Virus record (IMG/VR): IMGVR_UViG_3300030430_003380
Location: 1 to 62,400 of that record
Direction: 5' to 3' (one strand)
DNA: 62,400 nucleotides
DNA from: a virus
Taxonomy: Duplodnaviria; Caudoviricetes
Shown here piece after piece: positions 1 through 61,840 of this stretch. Positions within the stretch are counted from its first letter, which is position 1; the number at the start of each line of letters is the position of its first letter. Under the pieces are notes generated by a model. The model was given only the letters and a program-made list of their open reading frames with translations, was not told where the DNA came from and did not search any database. A program made the position numbers and the translations under genes.

Positions 1-319
1 AATACTCAAAACCATCTACTCTACCAATTGTAGCAGCATCACTGTATGAGTTTTCTGTACCGTTATAAAAAGTTAAGGCTCTATTTTCGTATCCAAATCT
101 TTTTATCTTTCTAAGACCTACAGAAAAAGTATAATCAAACGGGGTTTCTATTACATCTTCTTCAAGAGATCCTGATGTTACAGACCAAACTTGATTGTCA
201 CCTAAAGATGTGCCACCATTTACTGCAGCATAAAAAGTAGAATATTTAAATATTTTGTGTAATCCCTGAGCACTTCCTAAAAAAGGAATAAATAATAATA
301 TTAATAGTATTTTTTTCAT
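1..319 (-). CDS. Secreted protein, N-terminal part (runs off window); probable outer-membrane beta-barrel, likely same gene as 62132-62400
   Basis: Not in ORF track. Hand translation MKKILLILLFIPFLGSA-QGLHKIFKYSTFYAAVNGG...GRVDGFEY; ATG overlaps the TGA of the 804-aa gene (ATGA); SPI signal peptide with Gln at +1. Confidence 0.8.
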   Translation of the reverse strand, partial: MKKILLILLFIPFLGSAQGLHKIFKYSTFYAAVNGGTSLGDNQVWSVTSGSLEEDVIETPFDYTFSVGLRKIKRFGYENRALTFYNGTENSYSDAATIGRVDGFEY

Positions 320-2730
320 CTCTTTAATACCTTCGTTGTGCTAGTGTTACCATTATACGTTACGCTAAAACTATAAATTCCAGAAGGAAGTAAACTTACA
401 TCTAATTGATTAAGACCTTTATGTGTTTGATTTTCTTTTATTTTAATAATAAGTTTACCTGATATATCATATACTTTTATACCAACAGGTCCATTAGTTA
501 GAATATTTAAGCTATCATCCATAGGGTTAGGATACATAACCACATTATGACCTCTAAGTAAATCTCTAGTATCAAGATCGCTATCTCCACTACAACTCCA
601 ATATAATTGTTGACACTTATCATCCCAGTTGTTATTACAACAATATGGATCAACCATAATAACCCAAGCATAACAGGTATCATTTAGCCAGTAAGGGACT
701 CCAGGACCTCCAATACAACCTGCATCATACAAACAACTTCCATCATCTGTATTATACACAGAGTTATAGTTGTGAGCAAAAGGATCCATACAGCCCTCTA
801 ATACATCTATACAACCCCCGTTGTCTGTATTAGCTAAAATATCGTAATTAAAAGCGTTTGAGTCTGTGCAACCATATACTATATCAACGCAAGAGAAATC
901 CTCTGTATTAGCCTCTAAATTGTAATTAAAGGCATTTGGGTCTGTGCATCCAGGAGTTATTGGAATACAAGACTCATTATTGGTGTTAGCAATAGGGTCA
1001 TAATTAAATGCAGTAGTATCAGTACACCCAAATATAAAAGGGATACAATTATCGCTTGCTGTATTCGCTTCATCATTATAATTATACATTGTAGGGTCCA
1101 TGCATCCTATTATTACAGGAATACAGCTACCATCATTAACATTAGATTCTATATTAAAATTAAACGCAAAAGGATCTGTACATCCTGGAACAGGATATAT
1201 ACAATTATCATTATTTACGTTTGCTGTACTATCGTAGTTAAGAGCTAAATTATCAGTACAACCAAAATACAAACAAGAACTATCTGCTACATTAGCAGCA
1301 TCATTAAAGTTCCAAGCTACCACATCCATACATCCATAAACAAAAGCTTCACACTCTCCGTCATCAACATTTGCTAGAGAGTCGTAATTAAAAGCTAATT
1401 CATTTGTACATCCTTCCACTACAGGAATACAATATCCAAAATCTGTATTAGCTAAAGAATCATAATTAAACGCTTCGGGATCCATGCAACCCTCTACTAC
1501 ATCTATACAATAATCACCACAATAAGGTAAAGCACTATATATATGCCAAAAAGGTGGCTCAAAAGGTTGAAGTGCACCTGCACCATTCATAGCAAATGGA
1601 TTAGATCCTCCTGATATTAATAAATCTAAATCTTCGTTAAATAAAGAAAAAGAATTGTGCATTGTTTGAAATTCTAACTCTTCTTGAGGTACTTGTGGTG
1701 GACCTAATTCAAAATATCTGATATGAACAGGAATATCTGTTCTTAAATATATCCATTTAACCTCTTCATATATACCAGGTCCTAAAGTGTATACTCCAAG
1801 AATAGAATCTCCTTGTGTAATAGCTAAATGAGAATCACCCCATCCGTCACCTCCTGCATCATTTAAAACTAATTTGTATTCACATATAGGAACTATATCA
1901 TTTAATGTAGCTTCAGGATCATAGTTATATGCATTCCAATTTAAACAACCTACAATATGTTCTGTTTCACAGCTACCATCATCTACTTGTGCAAAAGGAT
2001 TAAACTCCATGAAATCATTATCCATACATCCATATACAGTAGGTATTTCACAATTCTCTACATATATAACGCCTGAATATGCTACAGCTCCAAAATTAGA
2101 ATCAGGTAACTCCCATAATACGTCAGGGCTACCACAAGGCTCTAAATCACCCATAATAGTAAAACTACCATCTGAGCCTCCCCACTGACTACCACCTAAT
2201 CCATCACCATATGTATCACTTAATATAAGCTCTACACCTGTTTCAGGCACACACACTTGATATGGTATTGTAGTATTAGCTTGATTGTATGTATATTCAC
2301 CAGCTGCTACACTTTCTACTGGTTGTCCTGTAGATACATCTGTAAGAATCCATCCTGTTTCTCCAGGGTATTGATCTAATGTAATTTCAAGAAGCATTTT
2401 TGCTTGCCCTTCATCACATTCTACGTTAGCACAGCTACCATTATCTGTATCTGCTAAAGGATTGTAGTTTATAGCTTCTGGATCCATACATCCAGGTGTA
2501 ATATTAGGGTCTATTGGTAAAGGGCAATCACCATTATCAAATCCAAACTCAGGGCAGTTAAAATTTATAAGATAACCATTCCAGGAATATGTGTTGTCAT
2601 CACAAAAACCATCACCTAACCAACTTTCAGGAGCTTCATTTTCTGCACAATCTAAAAATAAAGTGTCTTGAGAGTAAACGTTTAAAGATATAAACGTAAA
2701 TAAAATAGTTAGTCTAGTTAACATTTCCAT
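316..2730 (-). CDS. T9SS type A sorting domain-containing Cys-rich surface protein (LNR/Notch-like repeat plus 13 GC(M/T)D..A.NY repeats)
   Basis: Signal peptide ...NVYS-Q (start may be the MLTR Met); WLGDGFCD...NC..FGFDNGDC LNR-like motif; C-terminal YPNP...VYDISGK...LDVSLLPSGIY...KVLKR. Confidence 0.88.
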   Translation of the reverse strand: MEMLTRLTILFTFISLNVYSQDTLFLDCAENEAPESWLGDGFCDDNTYSWNGYLINFNCPEFGFDNGDCPLPIDPNITPGCMDPEAINYNPLADTDNGSCANVECDEGQAKMLLEITLDQYPGETGWILTDVSTGQPVESVAAGEYTYNQANTTIPYQVCVPETGVELILSDTYGDGLGGSQWGGSDGSFTIMGDLEPCGSPDVLWELPDSNFGAVAYSGVIYVENCEIPTVYGCMDNDFMEFNPFAQVDDGSCETEHIVGCLNWNAYNYDPEATLNDIVPICEYKLVLNDAGGDGWGDSHLAITQGDSILGVYTLGPGIYEEVKWIYLRTDIPVHIRYFELGPPQVPQEELEFQTMHNSFSLFNEDLDLLISGGSNPFAMNGAGALQPFEPPFWHIYSALPYCGDYCIDVVEGCMDPEAFNYDSLANTDFGYCIPVVEGCTNELAFNYDSLANVDDGECEAFVYGCMDVVAWNFNDAANVADSSCLYFGCTDNLALNYDSTANVNNDNCIYPVPGCTDPFAFNFNIESNVNDGSCIPVIIGCMDPTMYNYNDEANTASDNCIPFIFGCTDTTAFNYDPIANTNNESCIPITPGCTDPNAFNYNLEANTEDFSCVDIVYGCTDSNAFNYDILANTDNGGCIDVLEGCMDPFAHNYNSVYNTDDGSCLYDAGCIGGPGVPYWLNDTCYAWVIMVDPYCCNNNWDDKCQQLYWSCSGDSDLDTRDLLRGHNVVMYPNPMDDSLNILTNGPVGIKVYDISGKLIIKIKENQTHKGLNQLDVSLLPSGIYSFSVTYNGNTSTTKVLKR
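733..1494 (-). repeat. Ten tandem ~26-aa Cys-bracketed repeats (GCxDxxAxNYxxxANxDxGxC) in the T9SS protein
   Basis: Counted in the translation; three more dispersed copies lie upstream in the protein. Confidence 0.9.
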
Positions 2731-3026
2731 CTTCTTCGTGCTTGTCGGATTCTTGAGTTAGGATTATTTCTAGTTTTTGCACTACTACGTTTTAGTTGAC
2801 CTAAAGATCTAGCACAATAAGATTTTCTTCTTTTAGCTGCTTTACTGCCAGGTTTTACTTTACCAGTTACAGCAGTTTTAAGTTTACTACCAGGATTTGC
2901 ACGTCTATATGCAGCGACACCTTTTTTTGTCATCCCAGCACCTTTTTTAGTAGGTCTAAAATTACCAGACTTAATACTGGTTTTTATACCCATACCTTTT
3001 TTTGCTTTTTTTATTACTTTAGCCAT
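2718..3026 (-). CDS. Small very basic phage protein (DUF6321-like)
   Basis: GAGMTKKGVAAYRRANPGSKLKTAV...RRKSYCARS...RRRWKC motif. Confidence 0.7.
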   Translation of the reverse strand: MAKVIKKAKKGMGIKTSIKSGNFRPTKKGAGMTKKGVAAYRRANPGSKLKTAVTGKVKPGSKAAKRRKSYCARSLGQLKRSSAKTRNNPNSRIRQARRRWKC

Positions 3027-3292
3027 TATCTCTTACGTTTGCGAACAGCTTTTACTTTTCTTTTTCTTTTATACCTAGACACCCTACCTTTAGTATTTTT
3101 TTCTTTTTGGGCTCTACGTTTTTCACTAGGGGTAAGTTCACTCCAAGTAGTGGGCGTATCTTTACTAATTCTTTTAGTAGGTCGAAAAGTGTTTTCACCA
3201 CCCTTGTAATCTTTCTTTCCTCTAGGTGTACGCCAGTCTTCTTTAAACCAACGTTTAAGTCGTAAACCTGCTGCTGTCTTTCTAACCGCCAT
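3026..3292 (-). CDS. Small very basic phage protein (DUF5872-like)
   Basis: LKRWFKEDW...RPTKRISKDTPTT motif; translationally coupled. Confidence 0.65.
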   Translation of the reverse strand: MAVRKTAAGLRLKRWFKEDWRTPRGKKDYKGGENTFRPTKRISKDTPTTWSELTPSEKRRAQKEKNTKGRVSRYKRKRKVKAVRKRKR

Positions 3293-3498
3293 TACTTCTT
3301 TTTCTTACCACCTTCACCCCAGTTAGCAGCACCTACTTTTCTACACTTAGCCATTGCACCACTTCTATAAGCTGAAGTCTTAGGTCCGTATCTAGATACT
3401 ACTTTGTGGTAGCAAGCATCTTTTACAGAGCCACCTTTCTTCATGCTTTTAACTTTTTTCTTTCGCTTTACAGCTTTACAAGTGCAATTCTTTCCCAT
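3292..3498 (-). CDS. Small basic Cys-containing phage protein
   Basis: KDACYHKV..RY....SAY.SGA..KCRK motif common in aquatic phages; coupled stop/start. Confidence 0.7.
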   Translation of the reverse strand: MGKNCTCKAVKRKKKVKSMKKGGSVKDACYHKVVSRYGPKTSAYRSGAMAKCRKVGAANWGEGGKKKK

Positions 3499-3710
3499 TA
3501 TTTATTAGCAAATTTTTCTACGCCAGAAATGCCAAACGAGCCAAGAACAACCCATACAAATGAATCGTATACAAACTCGTTTATTACTAGGTCTGATCCA
3601 ACCCACCCTGTAACAAGGTCAGCTATCATTATCAAACACATTATTGCAAAAGCTATAAATCCAACTATAGCCTTTTCATTCCAAGCGTTATCGTTCTTAA
3701 ATATTTCCAT
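3498..3710 (-). CDS. Two-TM membrane protein, holin-like candidate
   Basis: Two hydrophobic helices, C-terminal GISGVEKF. Confidence 0.55.
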   Translation of the reverse strand: MEIFKNDNAWNEKAIVGFIAFAIMCLIMIADLVTGWVGSDLVINEFVYDSFVWVVLGSFGISGVEKFANK

Positions 3711-22651: not shown

Positions 22652-25600
22652 TTATTTATAAGTATCTCCTATTGGTAATCTTAAAACCTTACCATGATCC
22701 CTCCACACTCTATTAATAATATGATCAGCTAGATGATTAGGCACTTTCAATTTATTAATCATAAGCTCTTTACTTTGATTTAAAGTATAGTGGTGAGCCC
22801 TTGCTGCAGCCACTAATACAGCCATCTGATCAACAAAGCCACTAAGATGTGGATCATAAAGAGGACTAAGTCTATTTAGTCTGCTATTTAGCTCATCCTG
22901 ATCGTACAAATTAAACTTCTCTCTGTTTAGTAAAGGTAGATTAATACCTTCTTCATAGAATATTTTATTACCTTTAGCTCTAGACTTAATCTTATTGAAC
23001 TGATCAGATAACTTAAACTGAGCTGATGTATCAGTATATATTCTACTTACTCTAAAACCAAGTAGTGCAGATATTTCATAAGAAACAACCCTTCTCTTGT
23101 CTGGATCAAAAGCATCATACAACTTAAACCCTTGCATAGCTGTAGAAGGTGCAAGCTTACCGCCAACGTATGTAACTACAGCAGGAATTATATCGTACCA
23201 TGGAGCTTCTTTATTGTATATTCTTTCAAACTCATTATCTCTAGCCTCTTGTATAGCGTTAAGAGTCATTTCCTCTGACAAGAATGGTTTGTATATTGTC
23301 TCTAGTATTCTAACTAAAGCGTCTTTACCATCTTTACTATCCACACCCTTAACAGCTATTCTAATCATATCTCTTATGTATCCTATACCAGACATCTTAG
23401 ACATGTTAACATAATCAACGTAAGGTCTACCTTGTTCATCTACACCACTACCTTTAGGTACTACGAAACCTGTTTGATCCCAATCAGGTTGTAATGCTCT
23501 TAGGTATCTTTTCTCAACCTCTTCGTCATCTCCTGCACCAAGTAACATTTGAAGCATCATTAGTTGTAAAGATTCTACAAGTGTTATTGTAGCTATAGAT
23601 GAGGCAAGTCTTGTTACACCCATTGATTTCAACTCTGGGTTACCACTACTCATCTCATTAAATGCTAGCATTACAGAGTTCTTAGCACATCTGATAGACT
23701 CAGCCTGGAATGCTACGAAGGTACCAACAAAAGGTGATCGACCTATGAATCTAATTATTCTAGGTATCTCATTATAGTTAGGGTAAGTGTTTCTTACATT
23801 CTCTGCGGCAACTAGGTCTGCCTCGTTTTCAGAAAGACCAGCTTTCATGTATTTTTCTTTCTCACTTAAAAATCCAAATATCTTAAATACATCATCTTCA
23901 GCTTGATACGCAGCAGTTAGTTTTTGATCTAATGTCTTTAACAACTTAGCTATATCACTTTCAGACTTGTTTGCAAAGAAAGTGTCAACATCAAAGTCTG
24001 CATCAGATAAATCTTTTGCTATACCTCTAATTTCTTGTAATGATGCAGACGAACTAACTACTCCAAGCTTGACTAGTTTTTTATAAAGATCTTTCATCTC
24101 AGGATCTTTAAACGTAGATACAGCTTGTATAGCTACCCTAGCAGAAGTAAACAACTTCTTACCATCCAAGTGACCATTCATTAACATGAAAGAAGAGTTA
24201 CCTATAATATTTCTTGTATGAGTACCAACACTCCAGATAGTCTTCATCTTTTTACCAAACATAACTACCTTCATGTATTGCTGATAGAAGTAGTTATCAA
24301 ACATATTCATCTTTCTATCAATCTCACTCAATACAGAGTACATCTCATCATCCAAGAAGTAACCATTTAAACTTCCAAATCTAGGATCTTTAACTTGGTT
24401 GTTAAACCCTTGATTTAATATCGCAGGTCTTCTACCAGATTCATCTGGTGGTGACAAGAATAATCCTTCACCAATATCTATAAGCTCTCTGTACATTTTA
24501 TCAGAGGTCACAGTTCTTGCTATCTTAGATATAGTATTTGTATAGTTGTAGAAAGGATCGTGTATCTCACCAAGTAAATCTCTAATCTCTACTGGTAGAT
24601 CTTCATTTCTAGCCATGAATATAGAACCAACTCTAGTTAATGCGTTACCAAAACCTTGTGAATAAGTCTGTATTCTTTCAGCTCTTGAAGTTTCATCTCC
24701 ATTCTGTATTATATCTAAGTCTTGTTTAGCAAAATCATAAGCCTCCTGCTCTGATAGTTCAGGATTTTTTTCCATATGAGCATTGGTCATAAAGTTCAAA
24801 GCTCTGTTAATTATCTTTTGATCTTCTTGCTTCCAACCCTTCTTCTCATACTGTCTGTATCTTCTTGTAAGATAAACACCAAGATTAGCATCAACCTTAA
24901 GAGTTGTAGGACCATCAACAATCTCCTCTCTAATTAAAGTTTTACTGAGCTGATCTATATGATCTCTCATGTTTATAAAAGCAGCTTTAAGTCTAGGGTT
25001 TCTTAACCTTAGTATCTTAGATCTGTCAGCTAAAAGCTCTGTGGCTTTTTGACCATCTATTTTTCTCTTACCAGAAACACTATTATTATATTCTATTATA
25101 GCAGCCTTAACTTCTTTAACGTTTTCACTAGCCTCAAACAACTCTTTATTTAAAGCACCTTGTGCCACAGTCATAAGGTCTTTAACCTCTTTACTACTAT
25201 GAGTACCAAATGGTTTTGCAAACAATCTAGATAACCTAACATCATACTGCTTGTCAGATATAGCCTTGAATGATGTAGCCCACCGACCTAAATCATAATC
25301 TCTTTCTATCATCATACGACCTATATCCCAAAGAACAGCAAAACCACCACGTCTATAAACAGTTCTACCTTGCTGGTTTGCTAGTTGGAATCTAGTTTTC
25401 GTATTAGATCTTACAGGTTCCCAAGTTGTAGCCATCTGTTTTCCACTATCATCAAACAAGAATCCTTGGAATCCTAATCCAGAGGCTAACTTAGCAATCT
25501 CTTCCATCTGATTGTAAGATACATCTTTAGACTTAACTTCTTTAGTATCTATGTTATCACAACAATCCTTAAGACTTTCTATCACTTCTTCAGATATATG

Positions 25601-28600
25601 CTCTGGGTAGTTAATCTTTACAGATAAACCTGTCTCTGTAGGTATAACTTCAGATGTATTTATGTGACCAAAGTTATCTGTATCTTCAAGAGCATGTCTA
25701 ACTAAGAATAAGCTAAGATTCATAGCATCCATATCCTTAGTTTCAAAGTTTAGGGTAGACTCCATTCTGTTTTCTGAATCCTTAAACCTATCTATATTGT
25801 AGTTAGCTACATCTCTTAGGTTTAGTGGATCCTTGTCTAGTGGATATAGTCTATCCATAGGGAACATAGATTTAACTTGAACGTCACCTATTCTTGAGTT
25901 TTCTTTTATATCAAGATTAGTATCAAAGAATGCTCTAGATCTAGACCACTTATTGTATTGTTCGTTAGAGAATGGTGTCATCTTCACGTTAGAAGGATCT
26001 ACCATCTCTGTATTTTCTGGAGCATAATGACTTAGAGATACCATGTTATCTATAATCTCCATATCTGGATACTCATTCTTAAGCTCCTCATAAGAGTCTG
26101 TAAGTTTAGCAAACTGTCTAGGATTTAAATTGCTAGTACCATTTTGATTAAGTTGGAACTTAGCTATACCTTTATTCTTGTGAGACTCCACCATATCCTG
26201 AGTTATAGGGAAGTTTCTAGCTCTCATTGGTTGTTTCTCTATAATCCCTCCACTTTCTAAATATTCAACAACTTTATCAGATAGTTTAAGTTTTGAAAGT
26301 AGGCTATTTCTATCAGCAACCAAAGCACCATCAATAGCAGCTTTAACTGGATTTATTAATTCTTTTAAATTAGATACGCCAATTTCTTGGGCTGACTCAG
26401 GAAATTCGTCAATTTTTTCTCTAATTGGCATAAGAAAACCATTTTGAAGATCATCTAAAAACGCTTCCTTACTCTCGTATATAGGAACAGACTCCACCTC
26501 TACGCTTTGAGTTATTCCCTCACCAACAGTTGTCCCTCCAAATGTTGAAATACGATTGACAAGTTTTTTACCTTTCGTGTATAGAGTTAAAACTTTACCA
26601 TCTTTCCTTAAACCTGTAGCATTACCAAGAAGCATGTCTATCTTTTGAACTGCAGTCCTAATCTCAACATCAGTTTCTACCTTAACTTCTTTTACAAGAT
26701 CTTCCCTTAGGTTACCTTTAGGACTCTCCATCTCATCTAACAAAACTGCTTCAACAGTATCTTGAAGGTATGTTTGAGTAATAAGGTTGTATAATTCATT
26801 ACTTATAGTACCATCCTCTTCAACCTGTATATCTATGAAGTCTAAAGGACTCTTACCTTCTCTCTCAAACTGACCTCTAACAATATTAGGTAGAGTATTG
26901 TCGTAGAAGTTTTTTAAACCTTCAGCTTGTTTACCCTCTGTAGGGACACCCTCTATCACCACACTCTCTTCACCAGTAATTAAAGCTACAGAGTCGTAAC
27001 CATTTTGTATAGCCACCTTCATTGCAGCTCTGACAGCTAGACCTGTATTCTTTGTTATATCACTCCAAGGGAAGTTAGGAACTCTATTTAAAACTTTAGT
27101 ATTCCTACTGAACTCTTTACGAACTTCCTCAAGATCTAAATCTTCTATTTTTTTCTCTAAAGCTTTTTTCTTAGAATTATAGTTTTCCCTCATAGAAACT
27201 ATCTCACGAGTTAAGCCATTAGCACGAGGATTAAATCCATTTAACTCCTCTGTAGTATTTAAACTAGAACCAAAATAAGTATCTAGTTTTGTCTCTAGCT
27301 CTGCAATCTTCCCATCATCTGGGGTAGTAGAGTTTATAAGTGTTGTTATTTGACTATCAAAATCTTCTAGTTCACGCTTATGTTGCTCTTCAAGACCGTC
27401 AAGAATTTGATCTCTAGTTGACTGAAGATCAATAATTTCATCGTAAAGTCTACTCTCTTCAACTTGTAATCTATCTATTTTAGCAGACAACTCACGACTC
27501 TTATCTCTAGCCTCAACTATATCTTTTAGTTCAGCAAAACCTTTCTTTCTACCTTCAGCCTCCCAATCAGATTGAACCTCTAGTATTAACAAAACTTTCT
27601 TACCATCCACAATCCTATCCTCTGTTCTAACAAATCCAACTAGGTTATCATTAAACCCAGTAAAGTGTCCACTGGTGTGGATTGTTTCACCTTTAGGGTT
27701 AAGGTTTATAAGTATGTTTTGAGGATTGTTTCTATCTTTTCTATTTCTATTTCTACCCCACGATACTGTAGCGTACTTAGAATTATATTTTTCTCTTAAC
27801 TCAGCTAAACTATTAACTCCAGGAAACAGAGATGACTTTGCTACAAAGTCAGATAGAACGATATACCTAACATCATTAGGCTCATTAACTCCACTATCTC
27901 TTATTGTTGTTGGCTCATTAGTGTTTAAAAAGTTTACAGCTATACCTGATAACCTGAAAGAATTAAGATCAAAGTCTTCATCAACACCTGTCATTTTGTG
28001 AGTTTCAATATCACCATTAGGCATTTTAATATCAAACGTTATATCGTAGGTAATATTTCCCTCATCATCAGGTACTCTTATATCTTTTTGAATTACACGA
28101 GAAACATTCTTCACAGTAACATCACCAAAATCTTTTTCTTCAATAACAAAGTTTTCACCTAATAAAGTAACCTCAATATCTGGAGTTAGGTTGTTAACTA
28201 ACACCTTTACATCTTCATATGTAGGATTCTTACCTGTAGTCTTAACTACGGTGTTCAAAGCCTCCTCTAAACCTGTAGATTTTATCTCATCACCAACACC
28301 CTTAACACCTGTGTCCTGCATTAACTTAATCCACTGCTTAACAGGTTTTCTAAACTTTCTACCTTTCTTAATTGTATTTAAGGTAGTGATTAAGTTAGAG
28401 TCAAAGTTCAGTGAGTTTCTTGCACTTAACTGAAACTTAGTTTCTTCTATGGTTATAGCATCAGGATCAAAGACAACATAGTTTCTAGCGTCACCTTCCT
28501 TATATGTCATACCATCTATACCAGCAGAAAGCATTAACATGGATGCTTCTTTCTGTGAACCTAGCTGACTCTCTAACTGTCCATAAAGTTGTGCTGTTGT

Positions 28601-31600
28601 AATGTTAGACTTCTCCTCAATCATGTAAGCTCTGTCAGCCTTACTAACTTTATCGTCACCAATCATCTCATCTACAATCTTCTCAACTGTTTCAACAGGA
28701 ACCTTAGAGTCCCAGTCTAAGTAGTCATACTCGTGATGTTGTTTTCCTGCGTGGAGTGAAACCTTAACTAAAGTACCAGCTCTTTTATAATTAGGTCTTA
28801 TATCATTGTTAGCCCAATCAAGAAGGTCTTGCGATGCTTCGTATTCAAATCTAAATTGATTTACTGCTGAGTCAAAATCAGACGTACCCTCTAGTAAATC
28901 TAAAAATATAGACTTCATCTCCATCTCTCTATAAGCTTCTTGAGATCTTACAGCACGAGCTTTATTCACCAACATAGTGTTGTACTCATGTACAGGCATG
29001 CTACCTATCTTATCATCTGCTGATGTAACTGATCCATCTCTATAACCTTTAGCTACTTCTTGCTCACTAGAGAAATAGAAACCATGACCATACTGAAGGT
29101 GACTCTTAATATAATTAGGGTTAAACTTGTCTATATTATTTGGACCACCATGATATAAATTACTTATTTGGAATCTACCAAACGCAGCATCACCGCCAGT
29201 AAAGTCATTAATAACATCTACGTTTGTTACAATACCACCATACATAGCAACATTGTAAGCTGACCTGTCTTGCTTATGCTTGAAAGGAATAGGTTTATTT
29301 TTCTTCTTTTCTGTCTCAGACATATAATTAGGAAAGGCTTCCTTTATATGAATAAACTTATTGAATATTTTGAAGTTACCTCCAGGTAAAACAAAAGGAT
29401 AACCAGGGTGATGACCAGCATCTCCCTCCTTAGTTTCTTTAATCGTAGCGTTAGTGTCTAAGTCTACAACACCAATAAGGTCACCCATTCTAGCATTCTC
29501 TATGAGTGGCTCGTTAACAAACTTTAATAAATCTTCAGGTCTAGGTAAACCAAGTTTTTTATTAAACTCAATCTTGTACAACTCTTGCATCACTTTGTTT
29601 CTATCACCAGTACCTATGGTTCTCATGTAGGCTTTAAACTCATCAAAGTTTTTAAACTTTTTCTTTGGTAAGTTTGTGTCTCTCTTTAATTTTTTTCTCT
29701 TACCTGTAACCTTATCTGTTTCCCAAAAATGATTAAGAACTGCAGCTTTATTAAAGGTGTTGTTTATCTGAGCTATAATTTCATTTCCAAACTTTTTATT
29801 GTTTTTTGATAAAGCTAACTCAACTTCTTTCTCAACATACTCTATAAAGTTTAAGTTTCCAGAAATAGAAGCGTTACTCATAGCCATAAAGACAACCTTT
29901 GTAACATCATCTTTTTTAAGTTTGTTTAGTAGGTTTTCAGCTTTAGACTTAGTAGTCCAAGCCCAACCTCCAGTGTCTTTCATCATAGGGTATAGTAATC
30001 CACCCATCATCTTATGCTTAACTCCAGTATCACTAGTTATATTACCAACTGAAGACCTGTCGATAGGAGCCACATAAACCTTTTCTCCATTTAAATCTAT
30101 AATAGATCCTACAGGAATATCTGTTTCTGAAAAATCAAATCTTTCTCTAAGCTGAAACTTAGATGGACCTCTATCAGATAGTAAATCTTCAGACACCTCT
30201 ACAAAGTCTGTAAGCATATCCTCACCAGCCTCAAGAGAGTTTTTTGTCATCGAATTATACTTAGCTTGGAACATTGCAACCTCTGTTGGCTCACCAACTT
30301 CAAACTCGTTTCCTGCTATGTTAATTTTCTTACCAGCTACGAAAGACTTAGCTAAACCTTTTTTAAGGTCACCTAGATTCTGTACAGTATCAAGTGTTAG
30401 ATCAAATATTTCACCATCAAAGTCAACGCCAAAGTAATGTTGTATAATATTCTTTACAGCCTGTTTTATTCTACCAAGAGTGCTTTGACTTCTTATAAAT
30501 TGATTTACAGCAGCATCACCCATCATCTCAGCAAAAGCTTCTTCAGTAAAGTATGCTCTCTTCTCTGCTGCAGACTTATCTTTTAAATAAGATGCAACCA
30601 TTTCGTTATTACCATACAACTGTTTAGCCCACTCGTAGTAAGACAACCTGATCCTTCTACCATCTTCAAGAACTATAAGCTTTGAATCTGATACTCCATC
30701 TGCTTTTCTTACAAGCTTTTCTATTTGTTTATATATCTTTCTACCTTCCTTTGTAGTCTTTAATTTATTTACCAAAGGATGTATTATCTCGTGGAACAAA
30801 GTATTACCTTGTATGTATTCCATGTTAAGATATATGGTGTCACCAAGGTAGAAAGCTGACTGACGAGAGTGACCAACTGGATCGTTGACCCCCTTTTGTG
30901 CTAGCATCTGAGCCATAGAGTCAGAGTTTCTAGCTATAGAGAAGTTAAGGTTACCTATAGATGATAACATCTTAACAATGAATCCTAATATTTTTTGTCT
31001 ACTATTAGGGTAGCCTTCAAAGAATGTAGCATCATAGTTTTCGCTAGTTGAGTCTAACTGATCCATGTTGTCAGCGTTAATATCCTTACCATGAACAGCC
31101 TCGTTTGTACCAAATCTTATAGAGAACTTTCTACCATTAGCATCTTTCATTATAAAGAAACTAGCACCATTTCTAGCGTCTGGTGATTTCTCTACAATAC
31201 CGTTTACAGACTGAACACTACCATTACTATTTAGAACACCTGTCTTACTTGAGAACACAGAAGTTTGACCAAAATTTCTACCCAGATTTAAAGCCTGAGC
31301 ATCTGTAAGCCCTTCAACCATGAACGATTCTTTAGACACTCCATTCTCTACAGTCCTAACAGTTTTATATTTAACTCCAAGGGCATCTAGCCTAGCCTTT
31401 AAGTTAGTAGACCTATTTTTGTTTTGCTCTGCAGTGTATCCATTCTTTTGCGATGATACAATATGGTAGTCTTTCTGTAAGTCATCTTGAGATACAGAGT
31501 CCATACTCTTAGCATCAGCTTTTCTAAACTCTAAGTTATTCTTCTTTACAAGCTCTGCCTTAGCATTCTCTTTAGCCATATCAGCTTTCTTCATCTCCGC

Positions 31601-34288
31601 CTGTCTGTGAGCCTCTAATAATTGATGTGCAGTTTCGTAATTTATGTTAGCAAACTCTATGGTGCCAACATCAGCACCAAGACCCTTACCTTGTTTACCT
31701 GAGTCTACAAGAACAGCAGTACCATCATGTTTTACAACAAACTCAAAAGTCCTATCCTGTAAAGCATCAAACTCTCTAGCACCTGTAGTAGCCTTAGCTT
31801 CTTTATCAGTTTGTTCTATATACTCTTCAAGTTTAGCTATCTGACTTTCTGTTAAAATCTTACCAAGCTGATTAACGTTTACACGAACAGCACTACCAGA
31901 TCCGACACCTGCTTCAGCTAACTTCTGTTCTACATACTCTATTCTGTTTTCGTTTATCTCTTTTTTGGTATACTCACCATCTTTATACTGAAACTTCTCC
32001 TCTGCTTCTTTCTGAAACTTTCTAGTCAAAGCTTTTTTTACAGCCTGAAACTCATCCTCTCCCTCTTTAGATACAGTGAATGAACCAGCTTGAAAGTCTG
32101 CAAGATTACCAATAGATATTCCTTTACTCTTTAAGAAAGAGTTTAATCTAGAGATAGTGCTTTCGTAAACTTTACTGGTAACAACAGTACCCTTATCAGC
32201 TATCAAAGCATCTATCTTAGATAAAGTCTCTTGTATACCATTTATTATATCAGCAGCACCACCATTCTTTACATTATTTTTATCTACAGATTCAATAGTT
32301 TTCAAGGACTTATCAAGTTCTTTAACCAACTCTAGCATAGAATCTCTAGCCTCCATAGCATCTTGACTGGTGTACCCCTCTAGTTTAGCTTTCATTTTAG
32401 CCTCTACTTCTGAGTCAATAGAGGTGTCAAACCCTATATCACCATTAGCTACAGCAGCTAAATTAGTTTCATCCTGAAAGAACAATAATGCATCCCTTCT
32501 AGTTAAAACTCTTTCGCTACCTGTCTTGTTATCAGTTATAGTTATAGAAGCTAAATTTTCTAAATCACCACTAATATCCTTCATAAAAGAATACCTAAGT
32601 TGTCTACTACCAATAACACCACCCATACCTGCACCAAGAATACCAGCATCAGTAACCTTCATTACAGCGTCAACGAAACTCTCTGGGGTACCAGCACCTG
32701 TTATAGCGTCATTAAGGATATTAGTAACCTCTGTACCCATCTCTGACCCAGCTTCCATACCCATGCCCTTGAAGTAATTTTTAACAAAGTTTTCTGACAT
32801 CTCCGTTGGAACATCAACTAACTTCATTTTACGCAGCTTACGCATAGTGTTTATATACTGGTAGGTAGGTATTTCAAATATCATCTCAGCACCACCACTA
32901 ACCATAGAGTTTATAGCTATCATAAGGGTACTCATGTCTACCTCACCTCTCTCTCTCATGTCCTTAAGGTCTAAAGACTTTTGACCATAAGCACTGGTAC
33001 CCATAGCACCTAAAGTTATACGCTGTGCTGCAGTTGTAGACAATCCAGCAGCTCCAAGAAACGCACCACCAGCATACATAGATAAGATCTGTGGTGCTGT
33101 TTGTGCTAAACCATTTCCAAACTGAGCTATAGCGTTACCAATGTTACCCTCTGTTAAAGATTCTGTAATACCATCAAACTCATAAGCTCTAGTTTTTTTC
33201 ATCCAAGATTCAGAACTCTCTTTAAGTGATCTTGCTATCTCACCACCATATCTATTGTAAGCTGTTATATTGTAATTGTTCATAGAGCCATAAGCAAGGA
33301 TTCCCTCTAAAGGCTCTATAATACCAGCAAGTAAACCTAGACTACCGCTAGCAAAAGAGTCAGCTAAATCACTAAACTGACCACCAGCCTCTAACTGTCT
33401 CTGATATAGGTTATTAAGGTAAGCACCCATCTCACTATTCTCAACCATTATAGGAGATATGTAGACATCATTCTTACCTTCTTGAAGGTCGTCTACAAAA
33501 TCTTGGTCTAACAAAGACTCCTTCATCTCTACAGGACTAACGTTTTTACCGTTAATCTTGAAGTGTTCCATCTGAACAAAAGTCTCATCTATACCCCTTT
33601 CTTTGAGGACATCCTCAATCTCACTTGGAGCATAGTTAATTACAGCATCATTAAAGTTTTGGGTGTTATAAGCTATGTCAGCTTCCTTAAACTCTTCTTT
33701 AAATAAATCTATTCTAGAGTTTAGAGTAGATAATTTATTATCGTTCATACGAGCATCAGAACCATAAGGATCCTTCTCTAACTTCATTTGCAACTCTCTT
33801 TGTTGCTTTAAAAGTTCTTGATAATATCGGTAATCTACACCGTAGTTTTCATACCATTGAGCCTTATATTCTTCTGTAGTTGGTACTTTTGATTGCTCTT
33901 CTTGTTCAAGCTTAACTTGTTTTTGCTTAAACCTATTCTCTGCAGATTCTAAAAGATAGTCTGAGTCTTCCGATTGAGATGTAATAGGTTCTTGATCTTG
34001 ATCCATGCTGACTTCCATAGTAGGCTCCGCATCTGAAGAATCTTTTTTTTTTACATCTTCTTGTGAAACATCTTGCTTAGGTTGTTGCTCTTTAGGTTTT
34101 TGTTCAACCCCCATAAGACTAGCAAAATCTTCTAAGCTATCTTCATAACCGTCTTGTTTAAATAAACCATAAGAGTGCGACAAAGCCTCTGGGTTTTCAG
34201 ACATAAGTATTTTAAATTCATCTAAACTATCACTATATCCATCTTTAGTGAATAAATCGTAGGCATACTGAATTGCTTCTTCGTTCAT
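22652..34288 (-). CDS. Giant polyvalent virion/ejection protein (zincin HExxH, DUF3293-like, ART-PolyVal-like, LPD38-like C-terminus)
   Basis: FHEIIHP...EEAFAE; LYHG...YGHGFYF...AGIDG...YVVFDP; VRNTYPNY...PFVGTFVAF; last gene of tail/ejection block. Confidence 0.85.
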   Translation of the reverse strand: MNEEAIQYAYDLFTKDGYSDSLDEFKILMSENPEALSHSYGLFKQDGYEDSLEDFASLMGVEQKPKEQQPKQDVSQEDVKKKDSSDAEPTMEVSMDQDQEPITSQSEDSDYLLESAENRFKQKQVKLEQEEQSKVPTTEEYKAQWYENYGVDYRYYQELLKQQRELQMKLEKDPYGSDARMNDNKLSTLNSRIDLFKEEFKEADIAYNTQNFNDAVINYAPSEIEDVLKERGIDETFVQMEHFKINGKNVSPVEMKESLLDQDFVDDLQEGKNDVYISPIMVENSEMGAYLNNLYQRQLEAGGQFSDLADSFASGSLGLLAGIIEPLEGILAYGSMNNYNITAYNRYGGEIARSLKESSESWMKKTRAYEFDGITESLTEGNIGNAIAQFGNGLAQTAPQILSMYAGGAFLGAAGLSTTAAQRITLGAMGTSAYGQKSLDLKDMRERGEVDMSTLMIAINSMVSGGAEMIFEIPTYQYINTMRKLRKMKLVDVPTEMSENFVKNYFKGMGMEAGSEMGTEVTNILNDAITGAGTPESFVDAVMKVTDAGILGAGMGGVIGSRQLRYSFMKDISGDLENLASITITDNKTGSERVLTRRDALLFFQDETNLAAVANGDIGFDTSIDSEVEAKMKAKLEGYTSQDAMEARDSMLELVKELDKSLKTIESVDKNNVKNGGAADIINGIQETLSKIDALIADKGTVVTSKVYESTISRLNSFLKSKGISIGNLADFQAGSFTVSKEGEDEFQAVKKALTRKFQKEAEEKFQYKDGEYTKKEINENRIEYVEQKLAEAGVGSGSAVRVNVNQLGKILTESQIAKLEEYIEQTDKEAKATTGAREFDALQDRTFEFVVKHDGTAVLVDSGKQGKGLGADVGTIEFANINYETAHQLLEAHRQAEMKKADMAKENAKAELVKKNNLEFRKADAKSMDSVSQDDLQKDYHIVSSQKNGYTAEQNKNRSTNLKARLDALGVKYKTVRTVENGVSKESFMVEGLTDAQALNLGRNFGQTSVFSSKTGVLNSNGSVQSVNGIVEKSPDARNGASFFIMKDANGRKFSIRFGTNEAVHGKDINADNMDQLDSTSENYDATFFEGYPNSRQKILGFIVKMLSSIGNLNFSIARNSDSMAQMLAQKGVNDPVGHSRQSAFYLGDTIYLNMEYIQGNTLFHEIIHPLVNKLKTTKEGRKIYKQIEKLVRKADGVSDSKLIVLEDGRRIRLSYYEWAKQLYGNNEMVASYLKDKSAAEKRAYFTEEAFAEMMGDAAVNQFIRSQSTLGRIKQAVKNIIQHYFGVDFDGEIFDLTLDTVQNLGDLKKGLAKSFVAGKKINIAGNEFEVGEPTEVAMFQAKYNSMTKNSLEAGEDMLTDFVEVSEDLLSDRGPSKFQLRERFDFSETDIPVGSIIDLNGEKVYVAPIDRSSVGNITSDTGVKHKMMGGLLYPMMKDTGGWAWTTKSKAENLLNKLKKDDVTKVVFMAMSNASISGNLNFIEYVEKEVELALSKNNKKFGNEIIAQINNTFNKAAVLNHFWETDKVTGKRKKLKRDTNLPKKKFKNFDEFKAYMRTIGTGDRNKVMQELYKIEFNKKLGLPRPEDLLKFVNEPLIENARMGDLIGVVDLDTNATIKETKEGDAGHHPGYPFVLPGGNFKIFNKFIHIKEAFPNYMSETEKKKNKPIPFKHKQDRSAYNVAMYGGIVTNVDVINDFTGGDAAFGRFQISNLYHGGPNNIDKFNPNYIKSHLQYGHGFYFSSEQEVAKGYRDGSVTSADDKIGSMPVHEYNTMLVNKARAVRSQEAYREMEMKSIFLDLLEGTSDFDSAVNQFRFEYEASQDLLDWANNDIRPNYKRAGTLVKVSLHAGKQHHEYDYLDWDSKVPVETVEKIVDEMIGDDKVSKADRAYMIEEKSNITTAQLYGQLESQLGSQKEASMLMLSAGIDGMTYKEGDARNYVVFDPDAITIEETKFQLSARNSLNFDSNLITTLNTIKKGRKFRKPVKQWIKLMQDTGVKGVGDEIKSTGLEEALNTVVKTTGKNPTYEDVKVLVNNLTPDIEVTLLGENFVIEEKDFGDVTVKNVSRVIQKDIRVPDDEGNITYDITFDIKMPNGDIETHKMTGVDEDFDLNSFRLSGIAVNFLNTNEPTTIRDSGVNEPNDVRYIVLSDFVAKSSLFPGVNSLAELREKYNSKYATVSWGRNRNRKDRNNPQNILINLNPKGETIHTSGHFTGFNDNLVGFVRTEDRIVDGKKVLLILEVQSDWEAEGRKKGFAELKDIVEARDKSRELSAKIDRLQVEESRLYDEIIDLQSTRDQILDGLEEQHKRELEDFDSQITTLINSTTPDDGKIAELETKLDTYFGSSLNTTEELNGFNPRANGLTREIVSMRENYNSKKKALEKKIEDLDLEEVRKEFSRNTKVLNRVPNFPWSDITKNTGLAVRAAMKVAIQNGYDSVALITGEESVVIEGVPTEGKQAEGLKNFYDNTLPNIVRGQFEREGKSPLDFIDIQVEEDGTISNELYNLITQTYLQDTVEAVLLDEMESPKGNLREDLVKEVKVETDVEIRTAVQKIDMLLGNATGLRKDGKVLTLYTKGKKLVNRISTFGGTTVGEGITQSVEVESVPIYESKEAFLDDLQNGFLMPIREKIDEFPESAQEIGVSNLKELINPVKAAIDGALVADRNSLLSKLKLSDKVVEYLESGGIIEKQPMRARNFPITQDMVESHKNKGIAKFQLNQNGTSNLNPRQFAKLTDSYEELKNEYPDMEIIDNMVSLSHYAPENTEMVDPSNVKMTPFSNEQYNKWSRSRAFFDTNLDIKENSRIGDVQVKSMFPMDRLYPLDKDPLNLRDVANYNIDRFKDSENRMESTLNFETKDMDAMNLSLFLVRHALEDTDNFGHINTSEVIPTETGLSVKINYPEHISEEVIESLKDCCDNIDTKEVKSKDVSYNQMEEIAKLASGLGFQGFLFDDSGKQMATTWEPVRSNTKTRFQLANQQGRTVYRRGGFAVLWDIGRMMIERDYDLGRWATSFKAISDKQYDVRLSRLFAKPFGTHSSKEVKDLMTVAQGALNKELFEASENVKEVKAAIIEYNNSVSGKRKIDGQKATELLADRSKILRLRNPRLKAAFINMRDHIDQLSKTLIREEIVDGPTTLKVDANLGVYLTRRYRQYEKKGWKQEDQKIINRALNFMTNAHMEKNPELSEQEAYDFAKQDLDIIQNGDETSRAERIQTYSQGFGNALTRVGSIFMARNEDLPVEIRDLLGEIHDPFYNYTNTISKIARTVTSDKMYRELIDIGEGLFLSPPDESGRRPAILNQGFNNQVKDPRFGSLNGYFLDDEMYSVLSEIDRKMNMFDNYFYQQYMKVVMFGKKMKTIWSVGTHTRNIIGNSSFMLMNGHLDGKKLFTSARVAIQAVSTFKDPEMKDLYKKLVKLGVVSSSASLQEIRGIAKDLSDADFDVDTFFANKSESDIAKLLKTLDQKLTAAYQAEDDVFKIFGFLSEKEKYMKAGLSENEADLVAAENVRNTYPNYNEIPRIIRFIGRSPFVGTFVAFQAESIRCAKNSVMLAFNEMSSGNPELKSMGVTRLASSIATITLVESLQLMMLQMLLGAGDDEEVEKRYLRALQPDWDQTGFVVPKGSGVDEQGRPYVDYVNMSKMSGIGYIRDMIRIAVKGVDSKDGKDALVRILETIYKPFLSEEMTLNAIQEARDNEFERIYNKEAPWYDIIPAVVTYVGGKLAPSTAMQGFKLYDAFDPDKRRVVSYEISALLGFRVSRIYTDTSAQFKLSDQFNKIKSRAKGNKIFYEEGINLPLLNREKFNLYDQDELNSRLNRLSPLYDPHLSGFVDQMAVLVAAARAHHYTLNQSKELMINKLKVPNHLADHIINRVWRDHGKVLRLPIGDTYK

Positions 34289-57988: not shown

Positions 57989-58256
57989 AAGATCCTTTAA
58001 AATCTTTTTTCTCTTCTATTAAGGATTCTCCTTCCTTGATTCTATCTTCAAGGTTTTTTATTCCTAAAAGAATTTCTTGACAGTCCTCAAAACATTCTCT
58101 TTTTGCTTTTATAGCTTGTCTTCTTTTAGCATCATCTTCTTCTATTAAAGGTTTACTTATTTCTTCTATAAGAAGATCTACAGCTCCTTTACTTGCTTCT
58201 ATTAACTTCTCTAAAGTTTTAAGAGCATAATCTTTATTCTGCTCCTTCATAAACAC
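57963..58256 (-). CDS. Putative terminase small subunit
   Basis: Short helical protein overlapping TerL start. Confidence 0.45.
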   Translation of the reverse strand: MFMKEQNKDYALKTLEKLIEASKGAVDLLIEEISKPLIEEDDAKRRQAIKAKRECFEDCQEILLGIKNLEDRIKEGESLIEEKKDFKGSFAERYAKK

Positions 58257-58803
58257 CTAATATATCAAAGTTTCTCATTCGTAGAAGAGACTCTCCATTT
58301 ATATCCATGTCGTACTCAGAGTTTTCACTAAAAAATACTCTATCTCCTTTTTTAACACCCTGCTCTTTCATCCAGTCATTTATATATACAGCATGACCAT
58401 GAAGCTCTACATCAGAAGCAGATGTTTCTAAAAATATACCAGATTCAGTTTTTTCTGCTTCTTTTCTTTCTTGTTTTACAAAGTTCCATATACCTATTGG
58501 TATCATTTCACCATCTCTTTCAACTAAATATATTTGATCTTTAGTAGCCTGATAAACTTCTTTATTATCTATATATTTTACTTTGTTTGAATCTGTTGCA
58601 ACAAAATGATGAAACCATATTTTATCACCTTTTTGTATGTTTAATTTATTATGCATAGGTGTCTCGTAAACAACTCCAAATTGTCTTGCTAACTTCATCG
58701 GGTTATAAGACGTGTCTCTATACAATTCAACACCATTTAACATAATGGTGTCTTCAGTTTGCTTTACCACTTCTATCCAGTAAAGATCTTTAATTGGCTT
58801 CAT
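58234..58803 (-). CDS. GroES-like co-chaperonin with two tandem Cpn10 domains
   Basis: MKPI...GVV..P...IQKGDKIWF and IPIG...KTESGIFL...VKKGDRVFF...INGE.L..MR..DILGV. Confidence 0.75.
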   Translation of the reverse strand: MKPIKDLYWIEVVKQTEDTIMLNGVELYRDTSYNPMKLARQFGVVYETPMHNKLNIQKGDKIWFHHFVATDSNKVKYIDNKEVYQATKDQIYLVERDGEMIPIGIWNFVKQERKEAEKTESGIFLETSASDVELHGHAVYINDWMKEQGVKKGDRVFFSENSEYDMDINGESLLRMRNFDILGVYEGAE

Positions 58804-60654: not shown

Positions 60655-61041
60655 TTATTTTTTTCTTATTTTTTCTATAGACCTACCTGCAAAGTAAGCT
60701 CCATATACTGTTATTAATAATGTTTGATATATAGGTATATAACTTTCTTGAATAACAAACTCTCCTATATTGCCATCAAACACTGACAAAACTACAAAAA
60801 TTGCAGTTAAAAATATACATATCAAAGGTCTGATGTTTTTACTAAGCCAGTTGTCAGACTTCATATCTGCTTCCCAACGTCTAGTAACTTGTTCTTGAGC
60901 TTGTGCTTCTGCCTGAATAAGAACTTCTTTCATAGCTTTTTTAGCAGCCATGGCTTCTTCTTTTGATGTAGATAAATTATCTACAACATTACCAAGTTTT
61001 TCAATTACACCTCCACCTAAAAAACTTAATAACTTACTCAT
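60655..61041 (-). CDS. Holin (3TM/DUF3154-like)
   Basis: RRWEADMKSDNWLSKNIRP...YGAYFAGRSIEK; adjacent to endolysin. Confidence 0.8.
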   Translation of the reverse strand: MSKLLSFLGGGVIEKLGNVVDNLSTSKEEAMAAKKAMKEVLIQAEAQAQEQVTRRWEADMKSDNWLSKNIRPLICIFLTAIFVVLSVFDGNIGEFVIQESYIPIYQTLLITVYGAYFAGRSIEKIRKK

Positions 61042-61493
61042 GACTCAACAAATTTATATTTTGTTTTTCCTTTTTCATTTTTGTAAGCCTCAAGAACTTC
61101 ATTTCTGTTACTGTTTTTCTTTAAAGATATATGTATCCAGGAAAAATTAAACTCGTTTATCATTTGATCAAACTCTAAATTTGAATCCAAAATCCAATCA
61201 TATATAACTTTATTATTCATTTTTCCATCACTCCAGTATTGCAGGTCCAAAGCTTGAGCTTTGCTATGCTGACTGCGAGATGATCCACCAATAGCTTTAT
61301 TGAGTTGCGGGCTACGATAACCACTACTAATACGAATAGGACCAATACTGTCCCTAAGAGGTTGTATGAGGTTGTCAATAAGGTTTTGCATATTTTCCAA
61401 ATGTTCCTGAGACATCTCATTTTTTATTCCTAACCTTTTAGCTGTATTACTATGCTCAATTTCTGCACGAGTAAAATTTTTACTTATTTTCAT
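61038..61493 (-). CDS. Endolysin, peptidase M15A family
   Basis: ISKNFT..E, ISSGYRS..LN..IGG...SQH....ALD, WIHIS. Confidence 0.9.
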   Translation of the reverse strand: MKISKNFTRAEIEHSNTAKRLGIKNEMSQEHLENMQNLIDNLIQPLRDSIGPIRISSGYRSPQLNKAIGGSSRSQHSKAQALDLQYWSDGKMNNKVIYDWILDSNLEFDQMINEFNFSWIHISLKKNSNRNEVLEAYKNEKGKTKYKFVES

Positions 61494-61501
61494 AATTTAT
61501 T

Positions 61502-61840
61502 TTAAAATGCTTCCATGACTATTTCATCTATAGAATCTTGAACATCTTTTTTAGTAGCTTCCATAGTCATCATTATATTTGCTTGAAATCTTTTTACTTC
61601 TTCATTATTATTAAAAATTACAATAGTAGGCACAACTACTATTTTATATTCTTTAGACCATCTTGAATCTGCAGTTATATCAACTCTTTTGGTTTTGCAA
61701 TCTGTAAGTTTTGGCAACCAAACCACCTCATTAGTTTTATTAAAACTAGCATTAAATTCAACAGCAACCATACCATCAGGAAAATCCTGACTAAAAGCTG
61801 ATAATGATATAAAAAAAAATGTAATTAGTAATTTTTTCAT
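61502..61840 (-). CDS. Secreted thioredoxin-fold protein lacking CxxC
   Basis: Signal peptide AFS-Q; VEFNASFN replaces the WCxxC region; YKIVVVPTIVIF...EVKRF. Confidence 0.75.
   Translation of the reverse strand: MKKLLITFFFISLSAFSQDFPDGMVAVEFNASFNKTNEVVWLPKLTDCKTKRVDITADSRWSKEYKIVVVPTIVIFNNNEEVKRFQANIMMTMEATKKDVQDSIDEIVMEAF

Follow-up and report, generated by a model that had tools for sequence, protein, structure and literature searches.

The 62,400-nt virus record IMGVR_UViG_3300030430_003380, which was analysed here in full and is called the window below, raises the question of why a phage would keep, directly beside its holin and endolysin genes, a set of genes whose products appear destined for successive layers of the host envelope. 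The set comprises genes for an 804-aa type IX secretion system (T9SS) cargo protein (316..2730), an outer-membrane beta-barrel split between the two ends of the record (1..319 and 62132..62400), a 94-aa inner-membrane coiled-coil protein (61845..62129) and a 112-aa exported protein with a thioredoxin (Trx) fold (61502..61840). We find that the coiled coil and Trx form a core; the barrel is an optional extension of this core, and the cargo an optional extension beyond the barrel. As to function, we tentatively put forward the possibility that this layered late-gene module is a spanin-independent link from inner to outer membrane that is used at lysis.

Nested occurrence of the gene set

A total of 234 full-length barrels was reduced to 123 loci by removing 94 with a flank below 4 kb and 17 that were 95% redundant. 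Both the coiled coil and Trx are present in all 123 loci (within 4 kb in 121 of them), and a barrel lacking this core was found in none of these phage loci. The cargo is present in 112, leaving 11 loci with the trio of coiled coil, Trx and barrel; the hidden Markov models (HMMs) for the cargo tails described below were built from these same loci, and the count of 112 is therefore descriptive. De-replication at 70% left 26 loci, all with the coiled coil and Trx, 18 with the cargo (the trio without cargo thus in 8/26) and 20 with a lysis gene within 4 kb. The original prediction that the four genes would co-occur in relatives is borne out by 40 of the 44 cargo-anchored loci as well as by the 112 of 123 barrel-anchored ones.

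When loci were anchored on the holin (n=42, with at least 5 kb upstream required and counted before any de-replication), all four genes were found in 29, the trio in 1, the coiled coil and Trx in 4, the coiled coil alone in 3 and no member in 5, and the nesting (cargo > barrel > Trx > coiled coil) was never out of order. Divergent-core searches recovered the coiled coil and Trx without a barrel in 22 of 42 loci with enough flank, again not de-replicated; ten further barrel-less records are fragments. The cargo occurs without the barrel at a single locus, which starts at a contig end. A four-protein envelope module had been proposed for this DNA, and the predicted compartments of the proteins do fit one, but the set is nested and not a fixed unit. 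Separately, ORFs (open reading frames) of 331-372 aa lying before barrel-less coiled coils were considered as divergent barrels and rejected on reading their sequences.

Across loci the members occur in shuffled orders, with foreign genes inserted between them, as would be expected if the region were late-expressed and recombination-prone and had gathered independent units, namely the coiled coil with Trx, and the barrel with or without cargo, or the cargo as a free moron. Loci L270 and L283, in which 6-7 kb separate the coiled coil from barrel and cargo, and a stand-alone barrel in a cellular genome (see Distribution) point the same way. The absence of core-less barrels among the 123 phage loci and the lack of the conserved loop in the cellular barrel argue against such independence, which we consider unlikely.

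The slot before the M15 endolysin is occupied by other small proteins in some phages. A 74-77 aa coiled-coil protein with an N-terminal transmembrane (TM) helix replaces or accompanies the core coiled coil there (L386:5196-5429, L384:5320-5553, L334:5076-5300, L350:337-561). Of the five holin loci with no set members, two carry a different 77-aa N-terminal-TM coiled-coil protein in this slot and a third carries an ORF of the same size. The 74-aa protein of L334 weakly matches the Rz-like spanin PHROG (E 0.005), and the 74-77 aa slot proteins have weak holin PHROG matches too. Clear homology between the 77-aa and the 94-aa protein was considered and rejected (hhalign probability 20%).

Gene order and the ends of the contig

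All six genes claimed for this block were present where they had been placed, on the minus strand, and the order cargo-barrel-coiled coil-Trx-M15-holin is, as read from the DNA, real. The cargo gene shares 4 nt with the start of the next gene (ATGA), and at the far end the tiny gaps reported earlier are 2, 4 and 8 nt, followed by a 4-nt overlap between the M15 endolysin (61038..61493; PF08291 57 bits, phrog_894 endolysin) and the holin (60655..61041; PF11351 27.9 bits against a cut-off of 24.8, phrog_3427 holin). From the spacing only, we infer that the block may be co-transcribed. Promoter-like and terminator-like counts in a scan of the block were near shuffle levels, with no terminator-like site between genes, two within the cargo gene and one within M15.

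The ORFs at the two ends were correctly suspected of being related: compared with three relatives, they are residues 1-106 (1..319, comprising the signal peptide, the first two strands and the conserved loop at residues 72-102) and residues 257-344 (62132..62400, the C-terminal 88 aa with strands 8-12 and the terminal Phe) of a single 344-aa barrel gene, assignments based on the relatives' alignment and a structural model. The residue spacing is uniform among the relatives' rows listed, and about 150 barrel codons are missing between the contig ends relative to those three. In locus L041, which is about 90% identical at both ends, the two ends are 447 nt apart, and L041-like contigs from three marine runs tile the barrel gene across both break points. 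No terminal repeat was found in the 62,400-nt contig at k=15-50. These contigs bridge both ends for the L041 genotype and do not close the gap in the window's own genotype. Because relatives join both end ORFs into one 344-aa gene, the contig is best read as a nearly complete phage genome opened inside the barrel gene.

The coiled coil and the thioredoxin fold

The 94-aa core protein, assigned to the inner membrane on its topology, has an N-terminal TM helix, a Pro-rich linker and a coil. This layout fits a spanin inner-membrane subunit (N-terminal TM and periplasmic coil) in topology only and not by homology, and the window protein has no spanin match in PHROG or Pfam. For the second core protein, assigned by homology and alignment, the predicted periplasmic thioredoxin fold stands as regards both fold and secretion signal, but CxxC is absent: the CxxC segment is deleted relative to solved thioredoxins, and no CxxC appears in the consensus or among the rows listed of a 45-sequence Trx alignment. 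The signal peptide carries no lipobox, and the terminal Phe is invariant (79/79 sequences). A complex prediction for barrel, coiled coil and Trx scored 0.18 against a mark of 0.32 and carries no weight for or against a complex. In several close relatives a 100-120 aa membrane protein (phrog_26616, 'lipoprotein') lies between the coiled coil and Trx (L045:7323-7625 and similar).

Lysis genes around the set

In 73 of the 123 barrel loci a lysis gene is found no more than 4 kb away, a count that excludes DUF5675 genes, to which PHROG assigns no function. The endolysins beside the set belong to no fewer than three unrelated types (M15, amidase and phrog_33083-type), and 8 of the 11 cargo-less loci adjoin lysis genes. 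Among the window proteins scanned, no spanin family was matched in Pfam, NCBIfam or PHROG, and no lipobox ORF was found in the window with a pattern that recovers just 3/5 control lipoproteins. A membrane link used at lysis is ranked first among the explanations because the core keeps its place beside holin and endolysin across several endolysin types and no lipoprotein spanin was found in the window.

A lysis gene neighbourhood could also reflect control of lysis timing, with the coiled coil as an antiholin-like brake, Trx as a periplasmic switch, and the barrel and cargo carrying surface cues (superinfection, Ca, glycans) that delay lysis, by analogy with T4 lysis inhibition, in which superinfection delays lysis and the periplasmic antiholin RI binds a periplasmic domain of the holin. 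The inside-out nesting, with outer parts never found without inner ones, is as this idea predicts; small membrane proteins with weak holin-family matches flank the core in several lineages, and the lumen of the barrel is polar and its outer insert large. Nesting would fit any inside-out assembly, however, PHROG and Pfam scans gave no homology to T4 RI/RIII, and a holin of the 3TM type is not known to have a periplasmic regulatory domain. We regard such a timing relay as decidedly unlikely. A broader version, in which a glycosylated, T9SS-exported sensor or adhesin, the barrel, the redox-dead Trx and the coiled coil act across four compartments to gate lysis or outer-membrane rupture, appears fairly unlikely; in it the type of C-terminal domain (CTD) may be swapped to suit the host, the cargo may dock on the phage barrel, and the barrel's conserved periplasmic loop may pass the signal through Trx to the coiled coil. 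If true, the infected cell would tie its bursting to surface contact.

A related podovirus without the set (MW202828) encodes beside its M15 a 207-aa N-terminally anchored protein (L312:15391-16014) with a sequon-rich stalk, C-terminal beta-strands and no PHROG match, a candidate alternative outer-membrane lysis protein.

The outer-membrane barrel

The barrel was modelled from a relative, locus L045, as 12 strands (predicted local distance difference test, pLDDT, 75; predicted template modelling score, pTM, 0.69). The barrel-like terminus with a Phe of the type recognised by the beta-barrel assembly machinery (BAM), noted from the window's fragment, accordingly belongs to a 12-strand outer-membrane barrel, and the terminal Phe is kept in 76 of 81 distinct sequences. 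The top fold matches were all membrane barrels, the Atlas matches being outer-membrane barrels at 0.93; NanC, KdgM, OmpG, Tsx and autotransporter barrels are nearest and all tied. Like 12-stranded monomeric outer-membrane barrels it has Arg/Lys/Glu-rich lumen-type strands, and it resembles NanC (Foldseek E 3.5e-6), KdgM (Z 10.2) and EstA (Z 10.6), at a root-mean-square deviation (rmsd) of 5-6 and 9-13% identity. Unlike NanC, KdgM and Tsx, it has a 70-aa outer insert, between strands 7 and 8, and a conserved inner loop of 30 aa. This loop (residues 72-102) is better conserved than any other loop (mean 0.63, against 0.41-0.47 for outer loops) and by strand count would face the periplasm. Its motif is found in 79 of 80 rows, four of which have unknown genomic context, and is absent from 4/4 rows of the stand-alone cellular clade.

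The T9SS shuttles PorV and PorP-SprF are 14-strand FadL-like barrels; the model has 12 strands, and FadL-type chains rank lower but tied. The full barrel has no Pfam match, and the two window fragments no NCBIfam match. The barrel has no lipobox Cys, and its family had no match in Pfam, PHROG, the fold libraries or Atlas, so that families outside those sets are possible. We therefore describe it as a predicted orphan 12-strand outer-membrane protein and BAM substrate. In five loci (including L156:11048-11536, L162, L170 and L171) a second small barrel gene of outer-membrane-protein type, with a weak PF13505 match, directly follows it.

The cargo protein

The cargo, identified by translation, HMM and predicted fold, has 42 Cys, an N-terminus rich in Cys, a pair of beta-sandwich domains and, at its end, a type A CTD. 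The CTD, proposed earlier, is genuine (residues 732-804, 319..537; TIGR04183 44.6 bits, cut-off 23; PF18962 49.5 bits, cut-off 27). Its model is a 7-strand beta-sandwich (pLDDT 77-87 over residues 730-800) whose top fold matches are solved T9SS CTDs, and it superimposes on the NucA CTD of the F. johnsoniae T9SS translocon (8glk_D) with Z 10.5 and rmsd 1.4 over 72 residues. The N-terminus is basic-hydrophobic with a helix at residues 2-17, and a Sec signal peptide is predicted; a crude hydrophobicity test for signal peptides was positive in 210/217 tail bearers versus 730/2962 other proteins. On these signals, the cargo is predicted to be exported through the host T9SS to the cell surface.

Of the 13 Cys-repeat units, ten are tandem repeats of 24-26 aa (residues 414 to ~670, 721..1491, recognised in the sequence), and the array is modelled at pLDDT<50 with no confident fold. 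The first beta-sandwich domain (residues 109-222, 2065..2406, from sequence and model) has an Asp/Gly motif in common with small cB cargos (named for their tail type; see below). The second (residues 282-400, 1531..1887, from the model) weakly resembles PLAT/C2-like folds and Ca-dependent carbohydrate-binding modules, at Z ~6 only, which is within the range of common arrangements. The Cys repeat was matched in 51 of 151 Flavobacteriales genomes (E<=1e-20); among the matches listed nearly all host matches fall in the cargo's repeat region, and the host proteins are mostly ORFs of 1,000 to >7,000 aa from marine Flavobacteriales. The repeat is, by its sequence, host-like. It is also shared by phage proteins of 1,300-1,900 aa without signal peptide or CTD (L133, L136, L150, L237, L249 and others) and by a cyanophage S-CAM3 virion protein.

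Since the CTD is real, the cargo would engage PorV/SprA and might jam the host T9SS, as the original prediction allowed; a large, variable, glycosylated body is not needed for that. Likewise, the occurrence of the Cys repeat in the S-CAM3 virion protein could suggest that the proteins are virion components, and against this speak the signal peptides and the barrel fold. Both ideas seem to us very improbable.

Short CTD-like tails and glycosylation sequons

Clustering of neighbouring genes showed that most seemingly cargo-free loci encode a secreted protein that ends in a CTD-like tail of only 40-50 aa, the bearers being exported proteins of 160-310 aa or 169-202 aa, or Cys-repeat proteins. Short tails occur in 73 of the 123 barrel loci. 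TIGR04183 misses them (0/11 matched, versus 8/9 long tails above cut-off), and they are likewise unmatched by PF18962 in Pfam. The commonest type, the 'dgtv' tail of ~42 aa, is multi-copy in 45 of 121 Flavobacteriales genomes, with up to 52 matches per genome; these are marine Flavobacteriales with genomes of 1-2.3 Mb (including G422, G436, G456, G488 and G511). The tail was C-terminal in 12/12 host loci examined (L292-L303), and SprA and PorV were present in 5/5 'dgtv'-tail genomes tested. The cA/cB tails were matched in only 1/151 genomes; profile comparison links them to each other and to 'dgtv' at 88-91%, and weakly to the long CTD at 4-36%.

Short CTDs of P. intermedia were shown to be cleaved and glycosylated, and that species is called the only one observed to have them (Ye et al. 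2025, PMC11969387). A short CTD would be recognised as a tail of 43-55 aa with a cleavage motif plus motifs B, D and E, at the C-terminus of an exported protein of a T9SS-bearing host. In a by-eye match to the text of that paper, which is not an HMM comparison, the phage tails are of similar length and have the same element order: cleavage-type motif, motif B (Tyr..Gly plus basic), motif D and basic motif E. They differ in that the 'dgtv' class is without the motif D Gly, and in that they are found in marine phages and small-genome Flavobacteriales. The gap left by TIGR04183 and PF18962 means that T9SS-type cargo of these bacteria and their phages is missed in annotation, and tail type may help predict phage hosts.

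The Bacteroidota O-glycosylation sequon, taken as in PMC12871550 and counted after 60% de-replication, exceeded all 100 shuffles in four cargo classes (193 vs 76, 140 vs 35, 62 vs 9 and 9 vs 3) and fell below all 100 in barrels (4 vs 15). The controls gave no uniform picture, with one LamG-type family depleted too and GroES-like and terminase sets mildly raised, and the cargo excess is partly due to the repeat consensus.

Among relatives the cargo ranges from 160 to 1239 aa, and a signal peptide and CTD-type tail are kept. This constancy, the presence of cargo in 112 of the 123 loci, 47 of them without a lysis gene within 4 kb, the tracking of cargo class by barrel clade in a quick tree, and the resemblance of the repeats to large host proteins would all suit a role in surface remodelling apart from rupture. 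The barrel and cargo would coat the infected cell, masking receptors, excluding superinfection, keeping progeny from binding to debris or changing adhesion; the coiled coil and Trx would be assembly or anchoring factors, and proximity to lysis genes would reflect late expression. The T5 protein Llp, for example, stops progeny phage from binding to debris. Superinfection exclusion or competition has indeed been proposed for phage T9SS cargo (PMC7468147). Such remodelling is rather doubtful in our view, as the coiled coil and Trx persist without barrel or cargo, often directly before the endolysin, and the cargo-less trios stand mostly beside lysis genes.

Distribution

Of 5,219 candidates from a protein search, 3,483 were barrel homologs, which clustering at 50% condensed to 407 representatives, and the pattern scans each confirmed at least 550 viral stretches; the set is thus widespread in uncultured marine phages. 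None of 50,697 phage records contained a match to the barrel, Trx or coiled coil. The set was also found in phage records of 127-138 kb with unrelated neighbours.

Scanning 185,579 prokaryote genomes of GTDB with the pattern gave six loci, namely five complete sets and one short fragment. The complete sets lie on phage-like contigs in metagenome-assembled genomes (MAGs) from taxa that are unrelated, an archaeon among them; the labels of L124-L128 (Parvibaculum, Sphingobacteriales, Flavobacteriales, Nitrosopelagicus and Rickettsiales) are likely to reflect viral contamination. Profile searches with the barrel matched 1 of 401 Bacteroidota genomes, on a phage-like contig, and 2 of 401 Flavobacteriales genomes. 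The scan missed the copy in the Flavobacteriales MAG G456 and is therefore not exhaustive.

That copy means that the barrel is not strictly phage-only: it stands alone among housekeeping genes (L306:9379-10593, G456:C35), with no coiled coil or Trx beside the stand-alone clade. It is absent from 40/40 relatives, one metagenome copy is 78% identical to it, and it forms a long branch inside phage diversity in a tree that is a quick version only and from which no donor direction is claimed. The stand-alone barrels (L306:9379-10593 and L309:2992-4194) have a degenerate loop and C-terminus and may be phage captures.

The phage genome and its neighbouring genes

A PHROG scan of the window proteins identified portal, large terminase, virion structural, DnaB helicase and GroES-like genes; no integrase was found among the window proteins scanned with Pfam and PHROG, a scan that left out some small ORFs. 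The terminase is 47.6% identical to that of an uncultured podovirus record and 36-37% identical to those of Maribacter phage Panino and the Flavobacterium Elemo phages, and its 129 matches are by organism mostly Flavobacterium, uncultured and Cellulophaga phages. We infer a Flavobacteriales-type host.

Several neighbouring genes (all on the minus strand) deserve mention. Directly upstream of the cargo (2718..3498) lie three short, strongly basic ORFs (DUF6321, DUF5872 and one of 68 aa); similar proteins adjoin the set in many phages and may be DNA-binding or membrane-active peptides. Next to them, a 70-aa membrane protein of no family (3498..3710) accompanies the set across lineages, occurring in 52 of the 123 loci in a count whose ORF filter drops some small genes, and is retained in barrel-less relatives. 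A GroES-like co-chaperonin (58234..58803) adjoins the terminase. A 3,878-aa virion-type protein (22652..34288) matches DUF3293 above cut-off, and its residues 1711-1771 weakly match DUF3990 / ART-PolyVal, below cut-off.

A possible link between the membranes at lysis

The gene set, its folds, its targeting signals and its nested inheritance are established. If the set does link the membranes, it may work as follows. The coiled-coil protein would have its anchor in the inner membrane and extend about 60 residues into the periplasm, in the manner of an i-spanin, and the redox-dead thioredoxin fold would serve as a soluble periplasmic adaptor that binds the coil. The BAM-inserted 12-strand barrel would be the outer-membrane docking site for the adaptor, via the periplasmic loop 72-102, and in barrel-less phages the adaptor would dock on a host outer-membrane protein. 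After the holin and M15 remove the wall, the chain would join both membranes and the outer membrane would give way. Outermost, and dispensable, would come the cargo, a Cys-repeat protein of host-like type that would be glycosylated, bear a CTD suited to the host T9SS and be displayed on the infected cell close to the barrel. Among the roles listed in the original prediction, the genomic evidence best supports the one linked to lysis; T9SS jamming has no support beyond the tag.

Several observations weigh against this link. The barrel is dispensable: three genomes with the coiled coil and Trx, of 100%, 99% and 96% completeness, contain no match to it, and no lipoprotein takes its place there; the loss events come from few lineages. 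The topology of the loop is taken from a single model with low confidence in that loop. No recognised lysis gene lies within 4 kb in 50 of the 123 barrel loci, and 26 have none in the locus. The set includes no o-spanin-type lipoprotein, and for a fusogen that has to span the periplasm a coil of 60 residues is short. The lack of a recognised spanin is itself not unusual: three of four flavophage groups examined list none in PMC8776804, Table 3, and about 15% of phages are given as spanin-less (10.1101/515445). Many Bacteroidota phages are without a recognised spanin, and the separable gene series (coiled coil; with Trx; with barrel; with cargo) offers a handle on how such phages pass the outer membrane.

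Comparison with known systems

The lambda Rz/Rz1 spanin consists of an inner-membrane coiled coil and an outer-membrane lipoprotein. The set resembles two-component spanins of this kind in having an N-terminal-TM coiled coil and an outer-membrane partner beside holin and endolysin, and differs in that the partner is an integral barrel and not a lipoprotein, that a soluble Trx protein is a third member, and that the outer-membrane member can be absent. With no lipoprotein, the set falls outside the spanins, while possibly working like one.

Phages are also known to place proteins in the outer membrane, among them T5 Llp, Cor, Lom and the Lc/NmpC porin. The present set shares this with them, but they are single genes of enterobacterial phages, unlike a nested four-compartment set that uses the T9SS.

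T9SS cargo has been described in phages, as variable genes with type A cargo in 'Cryophage' genomes (Bellas et al. 2020, PMC7468147) and as T9SS-domain genes in crAss-like phages (PMC6949934). Like these, the window phage combines a Bacteroidota phage type A CTD, presumably used via the host T9SS, with a variable cargo body. The published cargos are an endoglucanase, a GH39 protein and a PA14-domain protein, and the portions of the two papers used here make no mention of a linked barrel, coiled coil, Trx fold or short CTDs. The literature searched, mostly open-access papers, yielded no account of the coiled coil/Trx/barrel set. Phage T9SS cargo alone is already published; what the present analysis adds is the nesting of the genes, the short CTD-like tails, the excess of O-glycosylation sequons in cargos and the loss of the barrel loop in the stand-alone cellular copy.

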